Sequence record: PZ445419.1
Origin: a phage
Reading direction: 5' to 3' (one strand)
Length of the DNA: 44,882 nucleotides
Both the position numbers and the translations under genes were made by a program. The notes beneath the pieces were generated by a model. The model worked only from the letters and a program-made list of their open reading frames with translations. It was not told the origin of the DNA and made no database searches. Below are positions 7,327 to 23,193 of this stretch, piece after piece; within the stretch, counting starts at the first letter, position 1, and every line of letters begins with the position of its first letter.

Positions 7327-7827
7327 ATGTATGGCGACCCGCAAACCTTTGTCGATTATGCCTCTGCGCGAGGCGTTGAAATTACGCTAGGCGACGCAAC
7401 GCGACACCTTACCATCGTTAATGACTTCCTTAACGGCATCAATTGGGTCGGCGAACAAGCGGACCCGACCGGAATCGACGCATGGCCCCGCATCAATTAC
7501 CAATCGGACGGGAAGCCGGTGCGCGACACGCTAACCGAAGTCGTGGCGGTAGTGCCTGTCGGGCAAATCGTAGACTTTGCATCAATCCCCGTTGCCGTTG
7601 AGCAAGCTGTTTACCGGCTGGCGCTGTTGGTGGCGGACGAGATCGATATTTCTCCTGTTGGCAGTGGTAAGGAGACTATCCGCGAAACTGTCGGCCCGAT
7701 CACGATGGAATATGACCCCGCGACGATTGGTAGCGGTGTCTCGTTCCCGTGGTGGGATGGCTTGCTGGGCCACTGGATTGACTCAGACGGCAACGCAGCG
7801 GGTAATTTTGATGTATTCCGGGGGTAA
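7327..7827 (+). CDS. head-tail connector / head completion protein (putative)
   Basis: 166-aa ORF with GGAG RBS, between capsid and tail genes; function inferred from position only. Confidence 0.45.
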   Translation: MYGDPQTFVDYASARGVEITLGDATRHLTIVNDFLNGINWVGEQADPTGIDAWPRINYQSDGKPVRDTLTEVVAVVPVGQIVDFASIPVAVEQAVYRLALLVADEIDISPVGSGKETIRETVGPITMEYDPATIGSGVSFPWWDGLLGHWIDSDGNAAGNFDVFRG

Positions 7828-16025: not shown

Positions 16026-16633
16026 CCACATTTAAATTGTACGGCGTCTTAGGACGTCGTTTTGGTAAAGTGCATAAGCTGGACTGCTTCACTCCGGGCG
16101 AGGGTATCACCGGCCTGTGCGTGAAGTTACCCGGCTTACAGGACTTTCTAATGTCGGCCCACCTGGACAATATGATGTTCAAGGTGCGCAAAGGCGACCA
16201 CACGATGACCGGCTATGATGAGCTGGGCGAGTTCCACGGCAACCGCGTAGTGACCATCGCGCCGGTTATGACTGGTGCAAAAAGCGGACTGGGCCAATTG
16301 CTGGCGGGTGTAGCAATCGTGGTGGCGTCGTTCTATACCGGCGGGCTTGCGACTGCCGCTTTCGGAGCTTCAGCCGCAACCGCGGCCTCTATCGGCGCAG
16401 CGACGTTTTCGTTCGGGATGTCGATGGCGCTGGGGGGCGTTATGCAATTGTTATCACCGCAACCGAAAGGATTGCAGACACGGCAGGACGTGGATAACAA
16501 GGCGTCGTACGCGTTTGGCGGACCGGTGAACACAACCGCGCAAGGCACGGCACTTGGTGTATTATGGGGCGAGCGTGAGATCGGCGGCGCTATTATTTCA
16601 GCCGGAATCGTAACCGAGGACTTGAACGAATGA
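16016..16633 (+). CDS. tail assembly protein (lambda gpI-like)
   Basis: 205-aa ORF with Gly/Ala-rich hydrophobic C-terminal half, overlapping K-like and J-like genes. Confidence 0.6.
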   Translation: MAMTTFKLYGVLGRRFGKVHKLDCFTPGEGITGLCVKLPGLQDFLMSAHLDNMMFKVRKGDHTMTGYDELGEFHGNRVVTIAPVMTGAKSGLGQLLAGVAIVVASFYTGGLATAAFGASAATAASIGAATFSFGMSMALGGVMQLLSPQPKGLQTRQDVDNKASYAFGGPVNTTAQGTALGVLWGEREIGGAIISAGIVTEDLNE

Positions 16634-19600
16634 CGATTATCTACGACGTCACTGGGCATAAAGGCGGCGGCGGCAAACAGCACACCCCGCAGGAAACGCC
16701 GGATAGCCTGCATTCCCTGGCTAAAATCCGCATCTTGCTTGCGCTAGGGGAAGGGGAATTCGAAAGTATTACCAGCGCAAGCGAATTGCGGCAGCGTGTA
16801 TACCTGGACGGCACGCCGATCCAGAACGCCGACCTGTCGGAAAACTTCCCCGGCGCTCGTGTGGAGTTCCGCCCCGGCACACAGCACCAGGATGTGATCC
16901 ACGGATTTTCAGCGGTGGAAAGTGAGCAGTCAGTCGGAGTAAAACTGGAAAACGGCACGCCGTGGGTGCGCCAGATTAATGACACCAGTCTTGACGCCGT
17001 GCGCATTCGAATCGGCATTCCAGCTCTGTACACAAACGAAGATAATGGCGACCTGGTGGGCGGGCGCATCGACTATAAGATCGTTGTGTATACGGATAAC
17101 GCAGACCCGCGTGAGTTCAGATTCGCCGCCGTTGGTAAAACAATGTCGCTATATGAGCGCGACCACCGCATCGAATTACCGCCGAACGTGAATACCGGCT
17201 GGCGGGTGGAGGTGCACCGCATAACGGCAGATTCCACATCGGCGAAAGTGGTGAACGATATTCAGGTACAATCAATCACTGAGATTATCGACGCCCGCCT
17301 GCGATACCCGCTAACCGCGCTGTTGTTCGTGGAGTTCGACGCTAAAGCGTTCCAGAACATCCCGCGCGTATCCATTAAGTGTAAAGGCCGCAAAGTGCTG
17401 GTTCCGAACAACTACGACCCGATTAATCATACCTATTCGGGCGACTGGGACGGTACGTTTAAACGCGCATGGACGGATAACCCCGCGTGGCACTGGTACG
17501 ATATTTGTATTACTGAGCGCTTCGGCCTCGGTCGGCGTATCAAACCGCAAATGTTAAACCGCTACGCGCTTTACCAGATTGCGCAGCGCTGCGATCAGCT
17601 GGTCAGTGACGGCAACGGCGGACGGGAAATCAGATTTAAGAATGATATGTACATCCAGTCACAGACGGATGCCTGGACCGTGCTTAAGGATTTAGCCGCT
17701 ATCTTTGCCGGTATGACCTGGTGGGGAAATCAGATGTTGAATATCGTCAGTGACCAACCGGTCGCAGCGGTGTCGCACACTATCACCAACGCCTCTGTCA
17801 TTGATGGTCGATTCGACTACGCATCTGGCAGCCAGAAAACTCGCTATTCCACATTCGCGGTAGCATACGGCAATCCGAAAAACCACTACGAAGACGCCAT
17901 CGCAACGGGCCAACGTGTCGAACTGGTGCGCCGCCATAAGATTAACCGTCTTGATATCACGGCGATCGGCTGTACGCGTGAGTCAGAAGCGCAACGACGT
18001 GGGCACTGGGCGCTAATCTCCAACCAGCTTGACCAGCAAGTTAGCTTTAAGGTTGGCATGGAGGGACTTTTCTTTATTCCGGGTAGCGTAGTCGCGATCG
18101 CGGATACAAACATTTCTGGCGGCTTCGAGACACGCGGCGGTCGCCTGTTGTCAGATCCTGGCACGCGGACTGTGCTGAACACAGACAGCGAAATCACGTT
18201 CCGCCCTGGGGATAAATTCCTGGTACGCACCGATAGCGGTAATGTGGAGACTCGCGAGATTGCCAGCGTCAACGGCAACAAGGTTACGCTAAAAACCGCA
18301 CTGGACGCCGACCCGATTCCTGATCAGCCGTTTTGCGTCGATGGCAACGATATCCAGTTGCAGAAGTTCCGCATCACCGACCTGGAATATGACGACTCTA
18401 CCAGCACTTTTTCAGTGCGCGGGATCGAATACAACGATAGCAAATATGATGCCGTTGATAATGGCGCTCGCCTTGACCCAGGCATCTTTACGCAAGTTCC
18501 TGACGGCGTAATGAAGGGGCCGGAGTCCGTGACCATTACCCCGTCGCAGATTTCATCGCAAGGCCAGCTAATCACCAACGTGGATATTGTGTTCCCGCCG
18601 GTGAAGGATGCCGTTGTTTATGAGATCCAGTGGCGACGTACCAGCTTGCAGAATATGGCGGTACAGTGGGGAAACGACTGGGTAAACATCCCACGTACGG
18701 CATCGAACGGCGCGCACATCCCTAACGTGTTTTCAGGCAATTATCAGGCACGCGTCCGCGCGATCGGTATGGGCGAGATTTCATCCCCGTGGGTGTCTTC
18801 TGCCATCACGCCGGTGGAAGGTCGTCTCGGCGGTCTTAACGCGCCTATCATCACCAACGCGATTTCGGGCCTTCACCAGATTTTGTGGAAGTGGAACCAC
18901 AATAACGCCGCGACGGATATTTCGTATACCGAGCTTGAGGTCCGCAAGACGGGCGAAACGGAATGGAAGTTCTTAACCAACGTCCCATATCCAGGGGCGG
19001 AGTATGCACAAACGTCGCTGGAGTTCGGCATCTATCAGCAGTTGCGCGCCCGTGTAGCGGATAAAATCGGCAACCTGTCGGACTGGTCGGACCCGTTTGA
19101 AGGGCAGGTGAGTGACAATGTTGACGAGTATATGAAGGGGCTGGACGACGAGTTCTTGACTTCTGAGGACGGTAAACGCTTCCAGGAAGCGATCGACACC
19201 ATGCCGCAAGGCATTTATGAGGCTATGCTCACCGACGCACAGCAATTGTTTAACGCCCGCGCCGAGTACAAGGGGATTTATGCAGAAATCTCGGTCGCGT
19301 ATAACGTGGCGGCAGATGCCCACCAGGCGGTAGCGCAACTGGAAACGTTGATCGGTACTCGCCTTGACGATGCGGAAGCGGCAATCCACACGTTGCAGAC
19401 CGCGCAGAGTACGCAGGAACAAGCGTTCGCCCAGTACCAGCAAACGGTTGCCGCTAAGTTTTCGGAACAGGAAGCCGCCATCCAGTCAGTGCAAACGGCA
19501 ACGGCGGACGTAGCGGGCGCTCTGGCGGAGTATAAGACCCAGGTCGCGGCACAGTTCGGTCAGCAGTCCGCCGCGATCGAGCAGAAGATGACGTCTTCGT

Positions 19601-20076
19601 TTAACCACTCCGGTGGTAGCGCAACGTACAGCCTTAAGGCGGGCGTGACGTACAACGGGACTTACTACGATGCAGGTATGCAGCTTTCCGTTGTGACGTC
19701 GGGCAGCGCTGTTAAATCCCGCATCGCGTTCAAGGCGGACCAGTTCTACATCATGCACCCGTCTAACGGCACTCTGTCGTCTGCGTTCATTGTTGACGGT
19801 GGGACAGTGTATATTGACACGGCACGCATCAAGAACGCGTCCATAAACTTCGCGCAGATCACGGACACGCTGCAATCGAATAACTTCGCATCAGGGTCAC
19901 GCGGCTGGCGTATCTGGAAAGGCGGCGCTGCGGAGTTTAACGAAGTAACGGTCCGCGGCAACCTGTACGCCACATCGGGTAACTTCGGGTTTTCTGGTGG
20001 GACCGTGACGATCGATAAGACAGGCGTAAACGTTCCGTTACCCGGCGGGGGACGGGTGAAAGTGGGGACTTGGTAA
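16630..20076 (+). CDS. central tail fibre / host specificity protein (lambda gpJ-like)
   Basis: 1148-aa ORF at the end of the tail-tip block, followed by a terminator. Confidence 0.8.
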   Translation: MTIIYDVTGHKGGGGKQHTPQETPDSLHSLAKIRILLALGEGEFESITSASELRQRVYLDGTPIQNADLSENFPGARVEFRPGTQHQDVIHGFSAVESEQSVGVKLENGTPWVRQINDTSLDAVRIRIGIPALYTNEDNGDLVGGRIDYKIVVYTDNADPREFRFAAVGKTMSLYERDHRIELPPNVNTGWRVEVHRITADSTSAKVVNDIQVQSITEIIDARLRYPLTALLFVEFDAKAFQNIPRVSIKCKGRKVLVPNNYDPINHTYSGDWDGTFKRAWTDNPAWHWYDICITERFGLGRRIKPQMLNRYALYQIAQRCDQLVSDGNGGREIRFKNDMYIQSQTDAWTVLKDLAAIFAGMTWWGNQMLNIVSDQPVAAVSHTITNASVIDGRFDYASGSQKTRYSTFAVAYGNPKNHYEDAIATGQRVELVRRHKINRLDITAIGCTRESEAQRRGHWALISNQLDQQVSFKVGMEGLFFIPGSVVAIADTNISGGFETRGGRLLSDPGTRTVLNTDSEITFRPGDKFLVRTDSGNVETREIASVNGNKVTLKTALDADPIPDQPFCVDGNDIQLQKFRITDLEYDDSTSTFSVRGIEYNDSKYDAVDNGARLDPGIFTQVPDGVMKGPESVTITPSQISSQGQLITNVDIVFPPVKDAVVYEIQWRRTSLQNMAVQWGNDWVNIPRTASNGAHIPNVFSGNYQARVRAIGMGEISSPWVSSAITPVEGRLGGLNAPIITNAISGLHQILWKWNHNNAATDISYTELEVRKTGETEWKFLTNVPYPGAEYAQTSLEFGIYQQLRARVADKIGNLSDWSDPFEGQVSDNVDEYMKGLDDEFLTSEDGKRFQEAIDTMPQGIYEAMLTDAQQLFNARAEYKGIYAEISVAYNVAADAHQAVAQLETLIGTRLDDAEAAIHTLQTAQSTQEQAFAQYQQTVAAKFSEQEAAIQSVQTATADVAGALAEYKTQVAAQFGQQSAAIEQKMTSSFNHSGGSATYSLKAGVTYNGTYYDAGMQLSVVTSGSAVKSRIAFKADQFYIMHPSNGTLSSAFIVDGGTVYIDTARIKNASINFAQITDTLQSNNFASGSRGWRIWKGGAAEFNEVTVRGNLYATSGNFGFSGGTVTIDKTGVNVPLPGGGRVKVGTW

Positions 20077-20082
20077 ATGCGA

Positions 20083-20104
20083 AGGGGCCATCCGGCCCCT
20101 TTTT
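20083..20104. terminator. terminator hairpin between convergent genes (near-identical to 23198-23221)
   Basis: AGGGGCC-atcc-GGCCCCT followed by TTTT; 3 bp after the J-like stop and overlapping the stop of the minus-strand gene. Confidence 0.65.
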
Positions 20105-21068
20105 AATACATATTCGGGATGACGAGTAGCGGGGTAGGTACGGCAATATTTTTACCTGGCATCTGGAATTGCCGCCGTGAGTAGTTGCCGATGACGCGGT
20201 TTTTAGCGACGCGCACATTATTACCCGCCATGCGTATCCCGTTCATTCGAACGTGGTTATAGCCCCCGTTGTTCTGAATCAGCGCGCCGGTGTATGAAAG
20301 CTGGATCAGGCTGTTTCCAATATTCTGGTCGCTCGTTCCGATGTTAATAGTGCGGTCATATACGAACGGCTTGTTCACCGTCGAGAACGTGACCTGATTC
20401 TGGTTATTCGTCATGGTGATGCCAGTCCCCGGAGTGGGGGGTGTATTGTTGAATATTACAAGGTCCATGTCCACCGAAGCCGCCACATCGTCGATGCCAC
20501 CGTAGGACGCGTTGCGGACGATAATACTGCCGCCATCGAAGCCTACTGATACGTTGCCGTCATCCCAGCGGGCGAACGGAACACCACTAACAGGCAAGGC
20601 CATACTCCCGTTGACGCGCACGCGCTTTGCGTATCTGCAGGTCATCAGCTTCGCCACGTTGGATATTGCGGTGAAGTCCGTCGAGTTTGCCACCAGTAAA
20701 CCAGCGTTACGCGACCCAACCGGCAGCACTTCCATTATGACGCCCGCCCATTGTGGTAAACCAGAGTACGCGCCATACGCATCATCCCCGCGCAGGGTTA
20801 TTCCGCTATTACCGTTGCGCGTAACCGACGTAACGTAAAACGGATCGGGTATTACCAGGGTCTGGTCGAATACCTCAATCACTTCTACCGGGCGAGTGAG
20901 AGCGACGACGACCTGCGACCCCGCCGTAAGAGGGGTGTTAATGGTTAGCGTCTTGTTGGACTGTGCCCGCTGGTTAAAGCTGGTGCAGTATGACGGCGCG
21001 CGAAGTCCCGCGGTGATCTCCATGCGCGGTCTTCCGTCGTTATAGTCGATAAGTATTCCAGCGCCCAT
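20103..21068 (-). CDS. hypothetical Asn/Gly/Ser/Thr/Val-rich beta-type protein (possible receptor-binding or exclusion partner)
   Basis: 321-aa ORF from ATG 21068 with GGGAG RBS (track starts at GTG 21077); opposite strand to the tail genes, directly downstream of the lipoprotein gene; no catalytic motif recognised. Confidence 0.55.
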   Translation of the reverse strand: MGAGILIDYNDGRPRMEITAGLRAPSYCTSFNQRAQSNKTLTINTPLTAGSQVVVALTRPVEVIEVFDQTLVIPDPFYVTSVTRNGNSGITLRGDDAYGAYSGLPQWAGVIMEVLPVGSRNAGLLVANSTDFTAISNVAKLMTCRYAKRVRVNGSMALPVSGVPFARWDDGNVSVGFDGGSIIVRNASYGGIDDVAASVDMDLVIFNNTPPTPGTGITMTNNQNQVTFSTVNKPFVYDRTINIGTSDQNIGNSLIQLSYTGALIQNNGGYNHVRMNGIRMAGNNVRVAKNRVIGNYSRRQFQMPGKNIAVPTPLLVIPNMY

Positions 21069-21070
21069 TA

Positions 21071-21292
21071 TTACCACTCCCGTGATTTAACTGATACTGT
21101 GCCTGAGAAATTGCCGTCGCTATCTGAAGACAGCCCCGTGAATCGCATGTCCACATCTCCTGCCGGGACTTTTTGCCCATCAACGTAGCGCAACATGCAG
21201 CTACCGTACGCAACCGTAATGCAATCGCCGTTGTTGCGTTCTACGGCGCAACCGGATAAAAGAACCGCACAAATCATAATTAAAGTTTTCAT
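21071..21292 (-). CDS. small lipoprotein; candidate Cor/Llp-type superinfection-exclusion protein
   Basis: 73-aa ORF with signal peptide and lipobox MKTLIMICAVLLSGC, AGGGGA RBS; reverse-oriented next to receptor-recognition genes. Confidence 0.6.
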   Translation of the reverse strand: MKTLIMICAVLLSGCAVERNNGDCITVAYGSCMLRYVDGQKVPAGDVDMRFTGLSSDSDGNFSGTVSVKSREW

Positions 21293-21372
21293 GGTATCAT
21301 CCCCTATATTTGGTTGAGTTTTAGTATTACACCGCTCAACCAGGATTGCAACCAATTTAAGAGGATTCAGCT

Positions 21373-23193
21373 ATGGCAGCGGGTACGCTATCGGTAACGA
21401 ATAATAGCAAGGCGGTAGTAGGGGTCGGCACAACGTTTACCGCGTTTAAAGCGGGCGACTTCTTAACGCTGGTGGTAGGACAAGTCCCATACACCGTGGC
21501 AATCGCGTCCATTGAAAGCGCAACCGCGCTCACGCTGGTACTGCCGTTCGACGGCCCAACGGCAACCGGCCTTGCGTGGGATGGCGTTAAGCGCGATACC
21601 ATGTCGCTGGCAACGATGGGCGTTACCGTACAGGCCCAAAAAGCATTGCGCTTGATGATTGCAGATGAAAACAACTGGCGTGCAATCTTCGGCGATGCTG
21701 AAGAAATCACAGTCACGCTCCCGAACGGGCAAGTTATGCAGGGTATGTCGTGGGGCTACCTGTCGTCTTTGCTGAAGGAAGTAGACCCCGTTGAGATGCG
21801 CAACCTGCAACAACAAGCCGCCGCATCGGAAGCAGCCGCGCAAGGATTCCGTAACGAGGCGGAAGGCTTCAAGAACGACGCCAACACCATCAAGACGCAG
21901 ACCAGCCAACTTAAGGCAGATACGCAGGCGATCAAGGACCAGACCACTCAACTTAAGGCAGATACGCAGGCGATCAAGGACCAAACGAATCAGATCAAGA
22001 CTGACACTGGCGTTATTCGTGATGAAGCCAATACCGCGAAGGAGGACGCGCAAGCTGCCCGCACTGCCGCGCAAGGATTTCGCAATGAGGCCGAACAATT
22101 CGCTAATAGTGTTAACCCGGAAAACCTACTTGCGAAGGCCAACAACTTAAGTGATGTTGCGGATGTGGCTGTGGCGCGCGAAAACATTGGTGTAGACCGC
22201 CTAACGCAAAACATAACCAGCGGCGAAACACAAATCAGGACTGCGGCGAAGAATAAATGGATCTTCGTTAAGGAAAATGGCGACTGGGGCGGGTGGGATA
22301 ATGCCAACAATAAAGCCATGCCGCTGCCGATTGCATTCGGTGGTACGGGGCGCGGCGATAACGTCGCCGAGTTCCGCCAATTCAAATCAAACGGCGACAC
22401 CCAAGATGGGTTAATCATTACGCAGAACGGGTCTGGATTTGGTGGTGTATGCTGGGGGGATTCCGCCGATAAAGTACGCTGGCGCATGGGGATTAACGAC
22501 GCCGCGGGTAATTTTAAGTTGCACTCATATGACGCGTCGGGCGCGTACCGCGATACCTTTATGGAGATCTCTGGATCGGGGATAAGCGGCATGGTGTGTC
22601 ATCGAGATATCACGGTCCGCCCAACAGCGACAGCTCCAGTGTTGTCTTTCGTCCTAAACAACGGAAAAGCTACCGTCCCGGCTGGTAACGTCCGCACGAT
22701 GTGGGATACGGTTAGTATCAAGAGTAACCTGATCTATAAATATTTTGAGAAGGGAGACGGCACTGGCTTCACAGTCAACTGGCCCTCATCTGGTGGTGTT
22801 ATTGCCCTCCAGGGTACATCGGGGCGGGACTTTAAGAAAGATATTACCGACGCGGACGTTACAGAAGCGGTTGCACGCATTGAACAAATGCGCATGGTGC
22901 GCTACGTGTATAAGGACGATGTGCAGGAGCGCGTCCGCTTCGGCATCATTGCCGAGGAAGCAGAAGAGATTGCGCCTCAATACATCAAACACCGTGAGGA
23001 GACGTACGATGTGGAGGTGGACCCCGAGACTAACGCTATCATCGGCGGTAAAACCCGAGACAGGCCATCGGTGGACGTAAACCCGATCGTTATGGATTTA
23101 ATGGGGTGCGCACAATATGCGATCGCTGAGTGTAAACGCCTGGCGGCGGAAGTGGAGGATTTGAAAGCCGAGATCGCGGCGTTGAAGAAATAA
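21373..23193 (+). CDS. side tail fibre protein with possible C-terminal intramolecular chaperone domain
   Basis: 606-aa ORF with Q/T/K-rich tandem repeats (QLKADTQAIKDQT x2) and a C-terminal region resembling self-cleaving S74-type fibre chaperone domains; followed by a terminator. Confidence 0.7.
   Translation: MAAGTLSVTNNSKAVVGVGTTFTAFKAGDFLTLVVGQVPYTVAIASIESATALTLVLPFDGPTATGLAWDGVKRDTMSLATMGVTVQAQKALRLMIADENNWRAIFGDAEEITVTLPNGQVMQGMSWGYLSSLLKEVDPVEMRNLQQQAAASEAAAQGFRNEAEGFKNDANTIKTQTSQLKADTQAIKDQTTQLKADTQAIKDQTNQIKTDTGVIRDEANTAKEDAQAARTAAQGFRNEAEQFANSVNPENLLAKANNLSDVADVAVARENIGVDRLTQNITSGETQIRTAAKNKWIFVKENGDWGGWDNANNKAMPLPIAFGGTGRGDNVAEFRQFKSNGDTQDGLIITQNGSGFGGVCWGDSADKVRWRMGINDAAGNFKLHSYDASGAYRDTFMEISGSGISGMVCHRDITVRPTATAPVLSFVLNNGKATVPAGNVRTMWDTVSIKSNLIYKYFEKGDGTGFTVNWPSSGGVIALQGTSGRDFKKDITDADVTEAVARIEQMRMVRYVYKDDVQERVRFGIIAEEAEEIAPQYIKHREETYDVEVDPETNAIIGGKTRDRPSVDVNPIVMDLMGCAQYAIAECKRLAAEVEDLKAEIAALKK
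21906..21989 (+). repeat. 42-bp in-frame tandem duplication inside the tail-fibre gene
   Basis: CAACTTAAGGCAGATACGCAGGCGATCAAGGACCA present twice in tandem with minor changes. Confidence 0.6.

Follow-up and report, generated by a model that had tools for sequence, protein, structure and literature searches.

A probable terminal-receptor cassette of Escherichia phage Oekolampad pairs its LptDE-binding protein with a putative superinfection-exclusion lipoprotein

Two minus-strand genes in a 44,882-nucleotide phage sequence (PZ445419.1; the window, meaning the whole stretch of DNA analysed) very probably, at roughly 90% by our estimate, constitute the terminal-receptor module of Escherichia phage Oekolampad, in which a receptor-binding protein (RBP) of the LptDE translocon is paired with a lipoprotein that would, by homology, block that same receptor. 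This is already known: both genes have been identified and the RBP's cryo-EM structure has been published and, since that work concerned exactly these genes or close homologues of them, finding the locus again adds nothing new.

Locus and gene content

The window corresponds to MZ501095, in which the genome of the Dhillonvirus Escherichia phage Oekolampad (Bas18) is recorded in full, and from which it differs by a rotation of 551 nt and three substitutions, and its minus-strand 73-aa and 321-aa ORFs coincide exactly with the GenBank coding sequences bas18_0026 and bas18_0025. The features discussed below are as follows.

16630-20076, plus strand: J-like tail-tip protein, 1148 aa
19573..19983, plus strand: PF09327 segment (Pfam E 4.4e-38)
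20081..20102, no strand assigned: GC-rich hairpin with a 9-bp stem and the loop AUCC (RNA folding)
20103..21068, minus strand: RBP_Oeko, bas18_0025, 321 aa, 34.5 kDa, DUF6453 (PF20051, E 2.1e-121)
20172..20174, minus strand: RBP codon 299, CGG (Arg) in the window versus CAG (Gln) in MZ501095 and the PDB chain
21071..21292, minus strand: SE_Oeko, bas18_0026, 73-aa prolipoprotein (PF24052, E 1.8e-21; phrog_4281, E 1.9e-33)
21248..21259, minus strand: lipobox L-S-G-C, residues 12-15, read from the sequence
21323..21351, minus strand: sigma-70-type promoter candidate for the lipoprotein-RBP operon (TTGCAA and, after 17 nt, TGT-AATACT, an extended -10), found by eye
21373-23193, plus strand: lateral tail fibre bas18_0027, 606 aa, with a C-terminal intramolecular chaperone domain (Peptidase_S74, E 4.9e-11; phrog_1980; GenBank)

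The original prediction had described a reverse-oriented lipoprotein and a partner rich in N, G, S, T and V between J-like and side-fibre genes, and as a description of the locus this was accurate: the 73-aa ORF runs from 21292 to 21071 and the 321-aa ORF from 21068 to 20103, between the J-like gene (16630-20076, +) and the side-fibre gene (21373-23193, +), LSGC is read at residues 12-15 of the smaller ORF, and the five residues make up 44% of the larger. The overlap that it gave the two genes is replaced, with the ATG start, by a 2-nt gap (21069-21070). Judged by the strength of their profile matches (PF24052, E 1.8e-21; PF20051, E 2.1e-121), neither ORF is a product of chance and both are real genes. 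Searches in and around the cassette returned no repeats and no Rfam match, PADLOC models gave 0 matches for either protein at E<=0.1, and NCBIfam yielded only sub-threshold TraV signal-peptide matches.

Of the flanking genes, the J homologue carries the Pfam domains FNIII-A_GpJ, Phage-tail_3 and Phage_Tail_Tip, and the segment at 19573..19983 is probably the docking platform for the separate RBP, a reading that follows Maffei 2021 (PMC8594841). The lateral tail fibre, which binds the primary (glycan) receptor, lies outside the two-gene cassette.

The 321-aa protein is the LptDE-binding RBP

The 321-aa protein is identical at 320 of its 321 residues to chain C of PDB entries 9RPT, 9RPW and 9RQI, the Oekolampad RBP in its LptDE complexes, and its match to PF20051 (405 bits against a cut-off of 25) aligns residues 4-297 with profile positions 1-290 of 291. 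It is thus the monomeric RBP of the central tail fibre, which attaches to the LptDE translocon at its extracellular face (cryo-EM, PMC12685063), and the suggestion that the lipoprotein's partner could be a receptor-binding protein is borne out by this identity. In the published 2.8 Å structure, RBP_Oeko contacts LptD loops EL3-5 and EL11 across an interface of ~1700 Å2 with LptDE open, and point mutations in LptD abolish both binding and infection (PMC12685063). Genetically, Oekolampad-resistant E. coli carry in-frame deletions in lptD (Maffei 2021, PMC8594841). In vitro, formation of the RBP-LptDE complex was very slow and partial (PMC12685063).

The other role proposed for this protein, that of a second exclusion factor, is contradicted by the solved LptDE complex. 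We give next to no credence to the related reading that it is a host-cell membrane protein or moron acting in this way, for which annotation would speak, phrog_1265 being labelled ‘membrane protein; moron, auxiliary metabolic gene and host takeover’ and relatives bearing similar RefSeq names. The protein itself has no signal peptide and no predicted transmembrane helix (maximum 19-residue Kyte-Doolittle mean 1.22), its homologue in Salmonella phage S107 is co-directional with tail genes and sandwiched between them, and its Kuravirus homologue lies in a tail module. The ‘membrane protein / moron’ label was therefore rejected, for want of a hydrophobic segment and because the protein was solved as an extracellular binder.

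Conservation within RBP_Oeko is highest at its N-terminus, where the first 20 residues share a mean identity of 71% with distant homologues versus 21-59% elsewhere in the protein, which fits a tail-docking segment; such an N-terminal segment has likewise been proposed by others (PMC13035648). Single-sequence AlphaFold2 modelling of the 321-aa protein gave a mean pLDDT of 30 and a pTM of 0.19, too low to inform on its fold.

The single difference between the RBP of the window and that of 9RPT_C, 9RPW and 9RQI is Q299R. In the published structure Gln299 hydrogen-bonds Ser350 in EL4 of LptD (PMC12685063), close relatives of RBP_Oeko all carry Q at this position, and an IMG/VR scan for the Arg299 allele recovered the Gln allele only, in slur05-like and SO-1-like contigs. 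Located at an LptD-contact position, Arg299 might alter receptor binding or host range.

The 73-aa lipoprotein and its probable target

The 73-aa ORF begins MKTLIMICAVLLSGC and opens with a signal peptide that reads MK, TLIMICAVL and LSGC, with Lys2 in the n-region, a strongly hydrophobic core with a Kyte-Doolittle 11-residue mean of 2.7, and Ala at +2. The lipobox, as [LMV][STV]GC, is kept in 10/10 aligned homologues, and the pair Cys24/Cys32, a VP[AS]GE[VI]D motif and a C-terminal (K/R)EW are conserved among the aligned lipoproteins. Under the Lol sorting rule, Ala at +2 directs a lipoprotein to the outer membrane. Cys15 is accordingly predicted from sequence to become the lipidated N-terminus after LspA cleavage, with sorting to the outer membrane, and the mature form would comprise 59 aa (6.35 kDa, pI 4.7).

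The PF24052 (Phage_lipoprotein) match covers residues 3-73 (76.3 bits, cut-off 27), and SE_Oeko aligns with the Rtp45 chain of PDB 9RPS (9RPS_D, E 2e-8, about 35% identity), its Cys24 and Cys32 falling on the disulfide pair Cys30-Cys38 of Rtp45. In the study that named bas18_0026 SE_Oeko, Rtp45 was solved on the periplasmic side of LptDE, with EL4 displaced by up to 20 Å, a position that would prevent RBP binding and thus constitutes a steric exclusion mechanism (PMC12685063). The same study reported that expression of SE_Oeko failed and that AF3 predictions of the complex were wrong, and its spot assays covered LptD mutants only (PMC12685063), so that the exclusion role rests on structure plus analogy. 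By that analogy, SE_Oeko is most likely a putative superinfection-exclusion lipoprotein of the Rtp45 family, placed on the periplasmic side of LptDE.

Cor of T1, phi80, HK022 and N15 is a small lipoprotein whose gene adjoins those for host recognition and which probably inactivates the receptor of its own phage. The position of the Oekolampad lipoprotein gene recalls that of cor in T1-like phages, and the lipoprotein has a weak PHROG match to the Cor family (phrog_1119, 21 bits, E 6.5e-4). We nevertheless consider it very improbable that it blocks a TonB-dependent transporter such as FhuA or BtuB in the manner of Cor or Llp. The Cor match is restricted to residues 1-30, that is, to the signal peptide and lipobox, for which reason a Cor identity was rejected; the whole lipoprotein matches PF24052 and phrog_4281 far better, and no Llp chain was found for it in PDB sequence searches even at E<=10. 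FhuA and BtuB, the receptors that had been named for testing, are not those of this phage, whose receptor is LptD(E) (PMC8594841, PMC12685063), and in 9RPS it is LptDE to which the homologue Rtp45 is bound.

Junction and expression signals

The junction between the lipoprotein and RBP genes reads GAG TGG TAA TA ATG, with a GGGAG Shine-Dalgarno 8 nt upstream of the ATG at 21068. This start is preferred on account of its Shine-Dalgarno spacing, the GenBank annotation and the N-terminus that the protein had when expressed and solved, and also because M-[GAP]-x-G-[IL] is kept as the N-terminus in all homologues. An upstream GTG at 21077, which would give 324 aa and an overlap with the lipoprotein gene, was rejected as being without a Shine-Dalgarno. 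In all loci compared, the GAGTGG that encodes the conserved C-terminal EW of the lipoprotein is at the same time the Shine-Dalgarno of the RBP gene.

This arrangement bears on a second, unlikely alternative, namely that the lipoprotein serves above all in accessory or assembly functions for the RBP, or as a late guard of progeny against LptDE debris, rather than as an early exclusion factor. Its gene immediately precedes a late structural gene to which it is translationally coupled, the doubling of GAGTGG as the RBP Shine-Dalgarno suggests co-expression with the RBP, and an exclusion phenotype is absent from published work. On the other hand, Rtp45 has LptDE, from the periplasmic side, as its partner and not the RBP, and RBP_Oeko was produced in E. 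coli in the absence of the lipoprotein, folded and bound LptDE (PMC12685063); homologous RBPs occur with no lipoprotein gene beside them, and the Kuravirus lipoprotein is encoded in a group of small genes of the early region, a long way from the RBP homologue. Progeny protection, moreover, shares its molecular mechanism with exclusion, and thus differs from it in timing, not in kind.

The RBP stop codon converges with that of J at a distance of 26 nt, a position repeated in 11 other loci, and the gap between the two genes is filled by the hairpin at 20081..20102, which is probably a bidirectional intrinsic terminator. In RNA folding it gives -17.3 kcal/mol (z -3.6) on the plus strand, where UUUUUAAU follows it, and -15.8 kcal/mol (z -2.05) on the minus strand. 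In SA30RD and ETEP102 a terminator is annotated at the equivalent position, and our consensus promoter/terminator scan missed the hairpin. At the other end of the operon, the lipoprotein Shine-Dalgarno GGGGA lies at 21300-21304, and the 80-nt divergent intergenic region is nearly invariant among four Dhillonviruses. Close to where the operon begins, the scan gave a single promoter-like match, which overlaps the start codon of the lipoprotein gene. The elements at 21323..21351 (8/12 matches plus TG), which fall below the scan threshold and so do not appear in its output, are a weakly indicated candidate for the promoter of the lipoprotein-RBP operon.

Linkage of the two genes and relation to known systems

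Twelve loci, from Dhillonvirus, Drexlerviridae and mEp515, were compared. In nine of them the lipoprotein gene is followed at once, on its own strand, by the RBP gene, the two being joined by a TAATG overlap or a 2-nt gap, and in these nine the pair is downstream of gpJ and convergent with it. Gene coordinates in further records show the two genes side by side as well. RBP loci with no adjacent lipoprotein gene were found in Bas20, Salmonella phage S107 and Klebsiella phage mtp2, and the lipoprotein is therefore not obligatory for RBP function.

The closest known counterpart is Rtp44/Rtp45 of phage Rtp (Drexlerviridae, Rtpvirus), which belong to the same two families (PF20051, E 1.4e-113; PF24052, E 1.3e-37), and loci of the identical type occur in the BASEL phages Bas01, 02, 14, 19, 20 and 25. 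As in Oekolampad, the Rtp lipoprotein gene precedes the RBP gene, the pair converges with gpJ, stop and start codons are coupled, and the receptor is LptD. The Rtp proteins differ in sequence, with 33% (RBP) and ~35-37% (lipoprotein) identity to those of Oekolampad, and the junction is an ATGA-type 1-nt overlap in Rtp and Bas01 but a 2-nt gap in Oekolampad; Bas01 additionally needs NupG, through its J protein. The two systems are also complementary in what could be expressed, RBP_Oeko but not Rtp44, and Rtp45 but not SE_Oeko (PMC12685063).

More distant is the pb5 (Oad)/Llp pair of T5, which similarly combines a monomeric RBP at the central-fibre tip of a siphophage with a small periplasm-facing outer-membrane lipoprotein that alters the receptor's extracellular loops and thereby keeps the RBP from binding. 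In the complexes of both pb5 and RBP_Oeko the tail-proximal part of the RBP is disordered, whereas the lipoproteins differ in mode, with long-range allostery for Llp and physical displacement of EL4 for Rtp45 (PMC12685063). T5 uses the TonB-dependent transporter FhuA as its receptor, not LptDE, and a PDB sequence search with the RBP returned no pb5 at E<=1. Cor, too, acts on FhuA and forms a separate family, its likeness to SE_Oeko being limited to the signal peptide and lipobox. By sequence comparison, then, the Oekolampad proteins correspond to Cor, Llp and pb5 as analogues in function and are not homologous to them. The host-recognition and exclusion interpretation that had been put forward is thus supported, the RBP part by experiment and the exclusion part by homology to Rtp45, with LptD in place of FhuA or BtuB as the receptor. 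As with J of lambda, the J homologue encoded upstream here forms the central fibre, but receptor binding falls to J itself in lambda and in TolC-, LamB- and NupG-targeting relatives, whereas Oekolampad uses a separate RBP encoded downstream.

Kuravirus homologues

Both the DUF6453 and PF24052 families also occur in Kuravirus (SU10, phiEco32 and Bas89), at E 2e-23 and 2.4e-36. In SU10 the DUF6453 gene (gp19) directly follows the gene of the tail needle, gp18, which has a Phage_Tail_Tip domain, the domain of the PF09327 segment. Kuraviruses are podophages, however, in which the two genes are unlinked (~45 kb apart), the phi32_106-like lipoprotein being encoded among small early-region genes, and the N-terminal docking segment is not conserved in their DUF6453 protein. 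Tentatively, the Oekolampad cassette may be one case of a portable, two-part LptDE-targeting kit, consisting of a Phage_Tail_Tip-docking DUF6453 RBP and a PF24052 lipoprotein, that is used across morphotypes. If so, gp19 would sit on the SU10 tail needle and LptDE would be the terminal receptor of Kuraviruses; LptD was not reported as a Kuravirus receptor in the literature searched, and the presence of both families hints at an unreported LptD dependence there.

Proposed mechanism and implications

We posit that the cassette, two co-directional and tightly coupled genes on the strand opposite the tail operon, would work as follows. The J-like central fibre would carry RBP_Oeko, a soluble beta-sandwich protein, at its distal end, with the RBP probably attached to J via its highly conserved N-terminal ~25 residues. 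As cryo-EM of this protein shows, the RBP inserts loops deep into the extracellular mouth of the open LptDE lipopolysaccharide translocon, an engagement that would commit the virion to DNA injection. The prolipoprotein, meanwhile, would be lipidated, cleaved at Cys15 and routed to the outer membrane, into its inner leaflet, from where SE_Oeko, by analogy with Rtp45, would wedge into LptDE from the periplasm and push EL4 outward. From then on the RBP could not bind the LptDE of the infected cell or, once it had lysed, of its debris, so that superinfecting LptD-dependent phages would be excluded and progeny spared dead-end adsorption.

For the phage, this locus makes an essential and highly constrained outer-membrane machine, LptDE, usable as a receptor, and it is through this locus that the first open state of the translocon was captured. 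Superinfection exclusion here, judging from the Rtp45 structure, would be steric rather than allosteric.

Identity and annotation of the two genes

By megablast, window 19800-21600 is 99.9% identical to Escherichia phage Oekolampad (Bas18, genus Dhillonvirus; MZ501095.1/NC_073089.1, 44,882 bp), and a whole-versus-whole comparison revealed the window to be the Oekolampad genome rotated by 551 nt (window position = record position − 551), with exactly three base differences from MZ501095, all transitions, at 7447, 20173 and 28973. The two minus-strand ORFs originally described, a lipoprotein with a lipobox and an N/G/S/T/V-rich 321-aa protein, are present and coincide exactly with annotated CDSs, both carrying the GenBank product name ‘hypothetical protein’.

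Features of the cassette and its flanks (window positions)
16630-20076, plus strand: bas18_0024, ‘J-like tail tip protein’ in GenBank, one flank of the cassette
20081-20102, both strands: GC-rich hairpin, 9 bp, filling the 26 nt between the convergent stops of J (20076) and the receptor-binding protein (RBP) gene (20103)
20103-21068, minus strand: bas18_0025, 321 codons opening at ATG 21068; N+G+S+T+V = 44% of residues
21071-21292, minus strand: bas18_0026, lipoprotein, 73 codons opening at ATG 21292, MKTLIMICAVLLSGCAVERNNGDC...
21293-21372: divergent intergenic region, 80 nt, between the lipoprotein and lateral fibre genes
21351-21323: candidate promoter TTGCAA-17 nt-TGT-AATACT, found by eye upstream of the lipoprotein gene
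21373-23193, plus strand: bas18_0027, ‘lateral tail fiber protein’ in GenBank, the other flank

The lipoprotein matched Pfam PF24052 ‘Phage_lipoprotein’ (E 1.8e-21) and phrog_4281, and the 321-aa protein matched PF20051 ‘DUF6453’ along its entire length (E 2.1e-121) and phrog_1265; on the strength of these family matches, we take both ORFs to be real genes rather than chance frames. PADLOC and NCBIfam contained no model for either protein.

The 321-aa protein is an LptD receptor-binding protein

Searched against the PDB by sequence, the 321-aa protein had a single match, the ‘Tail fiber protein’ (chain C) in entries 9RPT, 9RPW and 9RQI, to which it is identical at 320 of 321 positions (E 3.7e-212). 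The entries were published by Dunbar et al. (PNAS 2025, PMC12685063; preprint 10.1101/2025.07.07.663478). In these structures RBP_Oeko reaches deep into the lumen of the outer-membrane translocon LptDE, captured in an open state not previously seen, through an interface of ~1700 Å2 contributed chiefly by LptD extracellular loops EL3-5 and EL11 (PMC12685063). LptD is the terminal receptor of Oekolampad, as spontaneous resistant mutants carried in-frame lptD deletions, and a ‘bona fide RBP locus downstream of gpJ’ tracks LptD specificity across Drexlerviridae, Dhillonvirus, Nonagvirus and Seuratvirus (Maffei et al. 2021, PMC8594841), an association confirmed across 255 phages by a 2026 preprint that cites the Bas18 structure. 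The protein is thus an RBP, one of two roles first suggested for it, and not the other, a second exclusion factor; its receptor is LptDE, not FhuA or BtuB. Its description as beta-rich is backed by the literature; a single-sequence AlphaFold2 model had a pLDDT of 30.

Several database labels for this protein are outdated or wrong: Pfam ‘DUF6453’, GenBank ‘hypothetical protein’, and PHROGs/RefSeq ‘membrane protein; moron, auxiliary metabolic gene and host takeover’. The ‘membrane protein; moron’ label is a mis-annotation, since the protein has neither a signal peptide nor a hydrophobic segment of transmembrane strength.

The window change at 20173 turns RBP codon 299 (20172-20174) into CGG (Arg), versus CAG (Gln) in GenBank and PDB (Q299R). 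Gln299, among the few RBP residues named, hydrogen-bonds Ser350 of LptD EL4 in the open state (PMC12685063). Gln occupies this position in all close relatives (slur05, Bas85, JL1, SA30RD, SO-1) and in two IMG/VR contigs; among distant homologues the position varies. Of the other differences, one gives I41V in bas18_0010 and one, in bas18_0038, is synonymous. Such changes may stem from variation in the phage stock, from sequencing or from editing.

In an alignment of 13 homologues, RBP residues 1-20 were by far the most conserved, with 71% mean identity to distant homologues versus 21-59% elsewhere, a pattern that fits an N-terminal segment that would dock on the tail tip. Beside the J gene of Citrobacter phage HCF1 (L017:2501-2602 in our comparison loci, which carry their own coordinates; MN545971, UNVERIFIED_ASMBLY) lies a DUF6453-type N-terminus of only the first 34 codons, 82% identical to that of the window RBP. 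This remnant reflects either decay of the RBP gene or faulty assembly, and it underlines the conservation of the segment.

The lipoprotein belongs to the Rtp45 family

At its N-terminus the lipoprotein carries an n-region with a Lys, then a hydrophobic core and an L-S-G-C lipobox, whose cysteine is Cys15. Ala at +2 of a lipoprotein directs Lol-dependent outer-membrane sorting, and from its Ala at this position the Oekolampad protein is predicted to be sorted to the outer membrane via Lol, consistent with the position of Rtp45.

Its best PDB match was 9RPS chain D, ‘Phage lipoprotein’ (E 2e-8), which is Rtp45 of phage Rtp, solved with LptDE and LptM (PMC12685063). Rtp45 also belongs to PF24052 (E 1.3e-37), and the two proteins share 35-37% identity (35% per PMC12685063), with a conserved lipobox, Cys24 and Cys32 aligned with the Rtp45 disulfide Cys30-Cys38, and conserved VP[AS]GE[VI]D and C-terminal (K/R)EW motifs. 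Structurally, Rtp45 lies where the outer membrane meets the periplasm, beside LptD strands 5-8, between LptE and LptM, and its hairpin extends up the lumen, displacing EL4 by up to 20 Å, a position sterically incompatible with RBP binding; its action on LptDE is thus steric, whereas T5 Llp acts on FhuA allosterically (PMC12685063). The same study explicitly names bas18_0026 ‘SE_Oeko’ and assumes a similar interaction; its expression failed, and we found no phage-exclusion assay there, the spot assays covering LptD mutants only (PMC12685063). An exclusion function for SE_Oeko is therefore well founded by analogy with Rtp45 rather than demonstrated.

Comparatively, the cassette belongs with the Rtp44/Rtp45-type LptD modules, as every sequence-level defining feature tested was found in it. 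It works like T5 pb5/Llp and the Cor systems without being homologous to them: similarity to the Cor PHROG was restricted to the signal peptide (residues 1-30, E 6.5e-4), and no pb5 or Llp chain appeared among the PDB sequence-search matches for either protein. The likeness to Cor and Llp in the original prediction therefore holds as analogy and fails as homology. Overall, that interpretation is supported once three points are corrected: LptDE serves as the receptor, the 321-aa protein acts as the RBP, and both proteins are analogues of Cor/Llp systems, not homologues. Since the essentials have been published for these very genes, bas18_0025 and bas18_0026, the finding is already known.

Gene junction and flanking regulatory elements

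The two genes had been thought to overlap; with the ATG start, the junction GAG TGG TAA TA ATG instead places them 2 nt apart. The sole overlapping option, GTG 21077 (324 aa), was rejected, having no ribosome-binding site; ATG 21068 has GGGAG 8 nt upstream, and the expressed and solved protein (PDB chain) begins MGAGIL, in agreement with ATG 21068. The GAGTGG codons of the conserved lipoprotein C-terminus (K/R)-E-W double as the Shine-Dalgarno of the RBP gene, and in every locus examined (the junction at window 21066-21085 and its equivalents in L003, L004, L006-L008, L010, L013 and L014) the lipoprotein stop and RBP start form a TAATG overlap or are separated by a 2-nt gap. The pair is thus almost certainly co-transcribed and translationally coupled, and coupling looks to be shared across the family.

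Downstream, the hairpin at 20081-20102 folds at −17.3 kcal/mol (z = −3.6) on the plus strand, followed by UUUUUAAU, and at −15.8 kcal/mol (z = −2.05) on the minus strand; related phages have terminators annotated at the equivalent position, and the hairpin is probably a bidirectional terminator. Upstream, the 80-nt region 21293-21372 is nearly invariant in four Dhillonviruses whose RBPs differ by up to 13% at the protein level, which points to conservation of regulatory signals serving the two divergent transcription units. A consensus promoter scan returned nothing usable; the 21351-21323 candidate falls below its threshold and is thus weak evidence for a promoter.

Distribution of the cassette

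A tblastn search of 50,697 phage records gave RBP homologues in 360 of them and lipoprotein homologues in 328; siphophages of Escherichia, Shigella and Klebsiella account for most. In 9 of 12 fetched loci (Rtp, AugustePiccard/Bas01, mEp515, Bas85, SA30RD, ETEP102, Msk, slur05 and JL1), the RBP gene is directly preceded by the lipoprotein gene on its own strand, and the pair converges with gpJ. The other three, FritzHoffmann/Bas20 (Nonagvirus, L005), Salmonella S107 (L009) and Klebsiella mtp2 (L012), encode an RBP with no adjoining lipoprotein gene, which shows that the lipoprotein is an optional add-on, dispensable for RBP function. In S107 the RBP gene lies on the strand of J, with a gene for a minor tail protein next in line, an arrangement that again identifies the RBP as a structural part of the tail; reverse orientation is thus not universal. 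In mEp515 (L006:1681-2915, PP180003), which belongs to neither Drexlerviridae nor Dhillonvirus, the cassette lies behind a gene for a lambda-type ‘host specificity protein J’, another sign of horizontal module transfer. If mEp515 is temperate, its lipoprotein gene would be one of lysogenic conversion.

Both families also occur, unlinked, in Kuravirus podophages.

Kuravirus genes of the two families (locus coordinates)
L018:11089-13090: SU10 gp18-gp19, tail-needle gene gp18, then the DUF6453 gene
L016:3159-4190: Bas89_0015, DUF6453
L015:2968-3249: phi32_106 (phiEco32), PF24052 lipoprotein, among small early-region genes
L019:6235-6516: SU10_0104, PF24052 lipoprotein, among small early-region genes

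The DUF6453 family is represented by SU10_019 and Bas89_0015 (343 aa), with E ~2e-23 to the profile and E 4e-13 by BLASTP to RBP_Oeko, and the PF24052 lipoproteins by phi32_106 and SU10_0104 (93 aa), with E 2.4e-36 and, by BLASTP, 1e-15. The DUF6453 genes directly follow gp18, which carries Pfam Phage_Tail_Tip (E 3.7e-27), a domain shared with the C-terminus of the window’s J protein. The SU10 virion structure paper makes no mention of gp19, and the literature searched held no Kuravirus-LptD link. Together, these observations suggest that DUF6453 proteins may dock on Phage_Tail_Tip domains in general, predict that the Kuravirus protein is a needle-tip RBP, and point to LptDE as possibly the terminal receptor of Kuraviruses, a testable lead that concerns phages outside the window.
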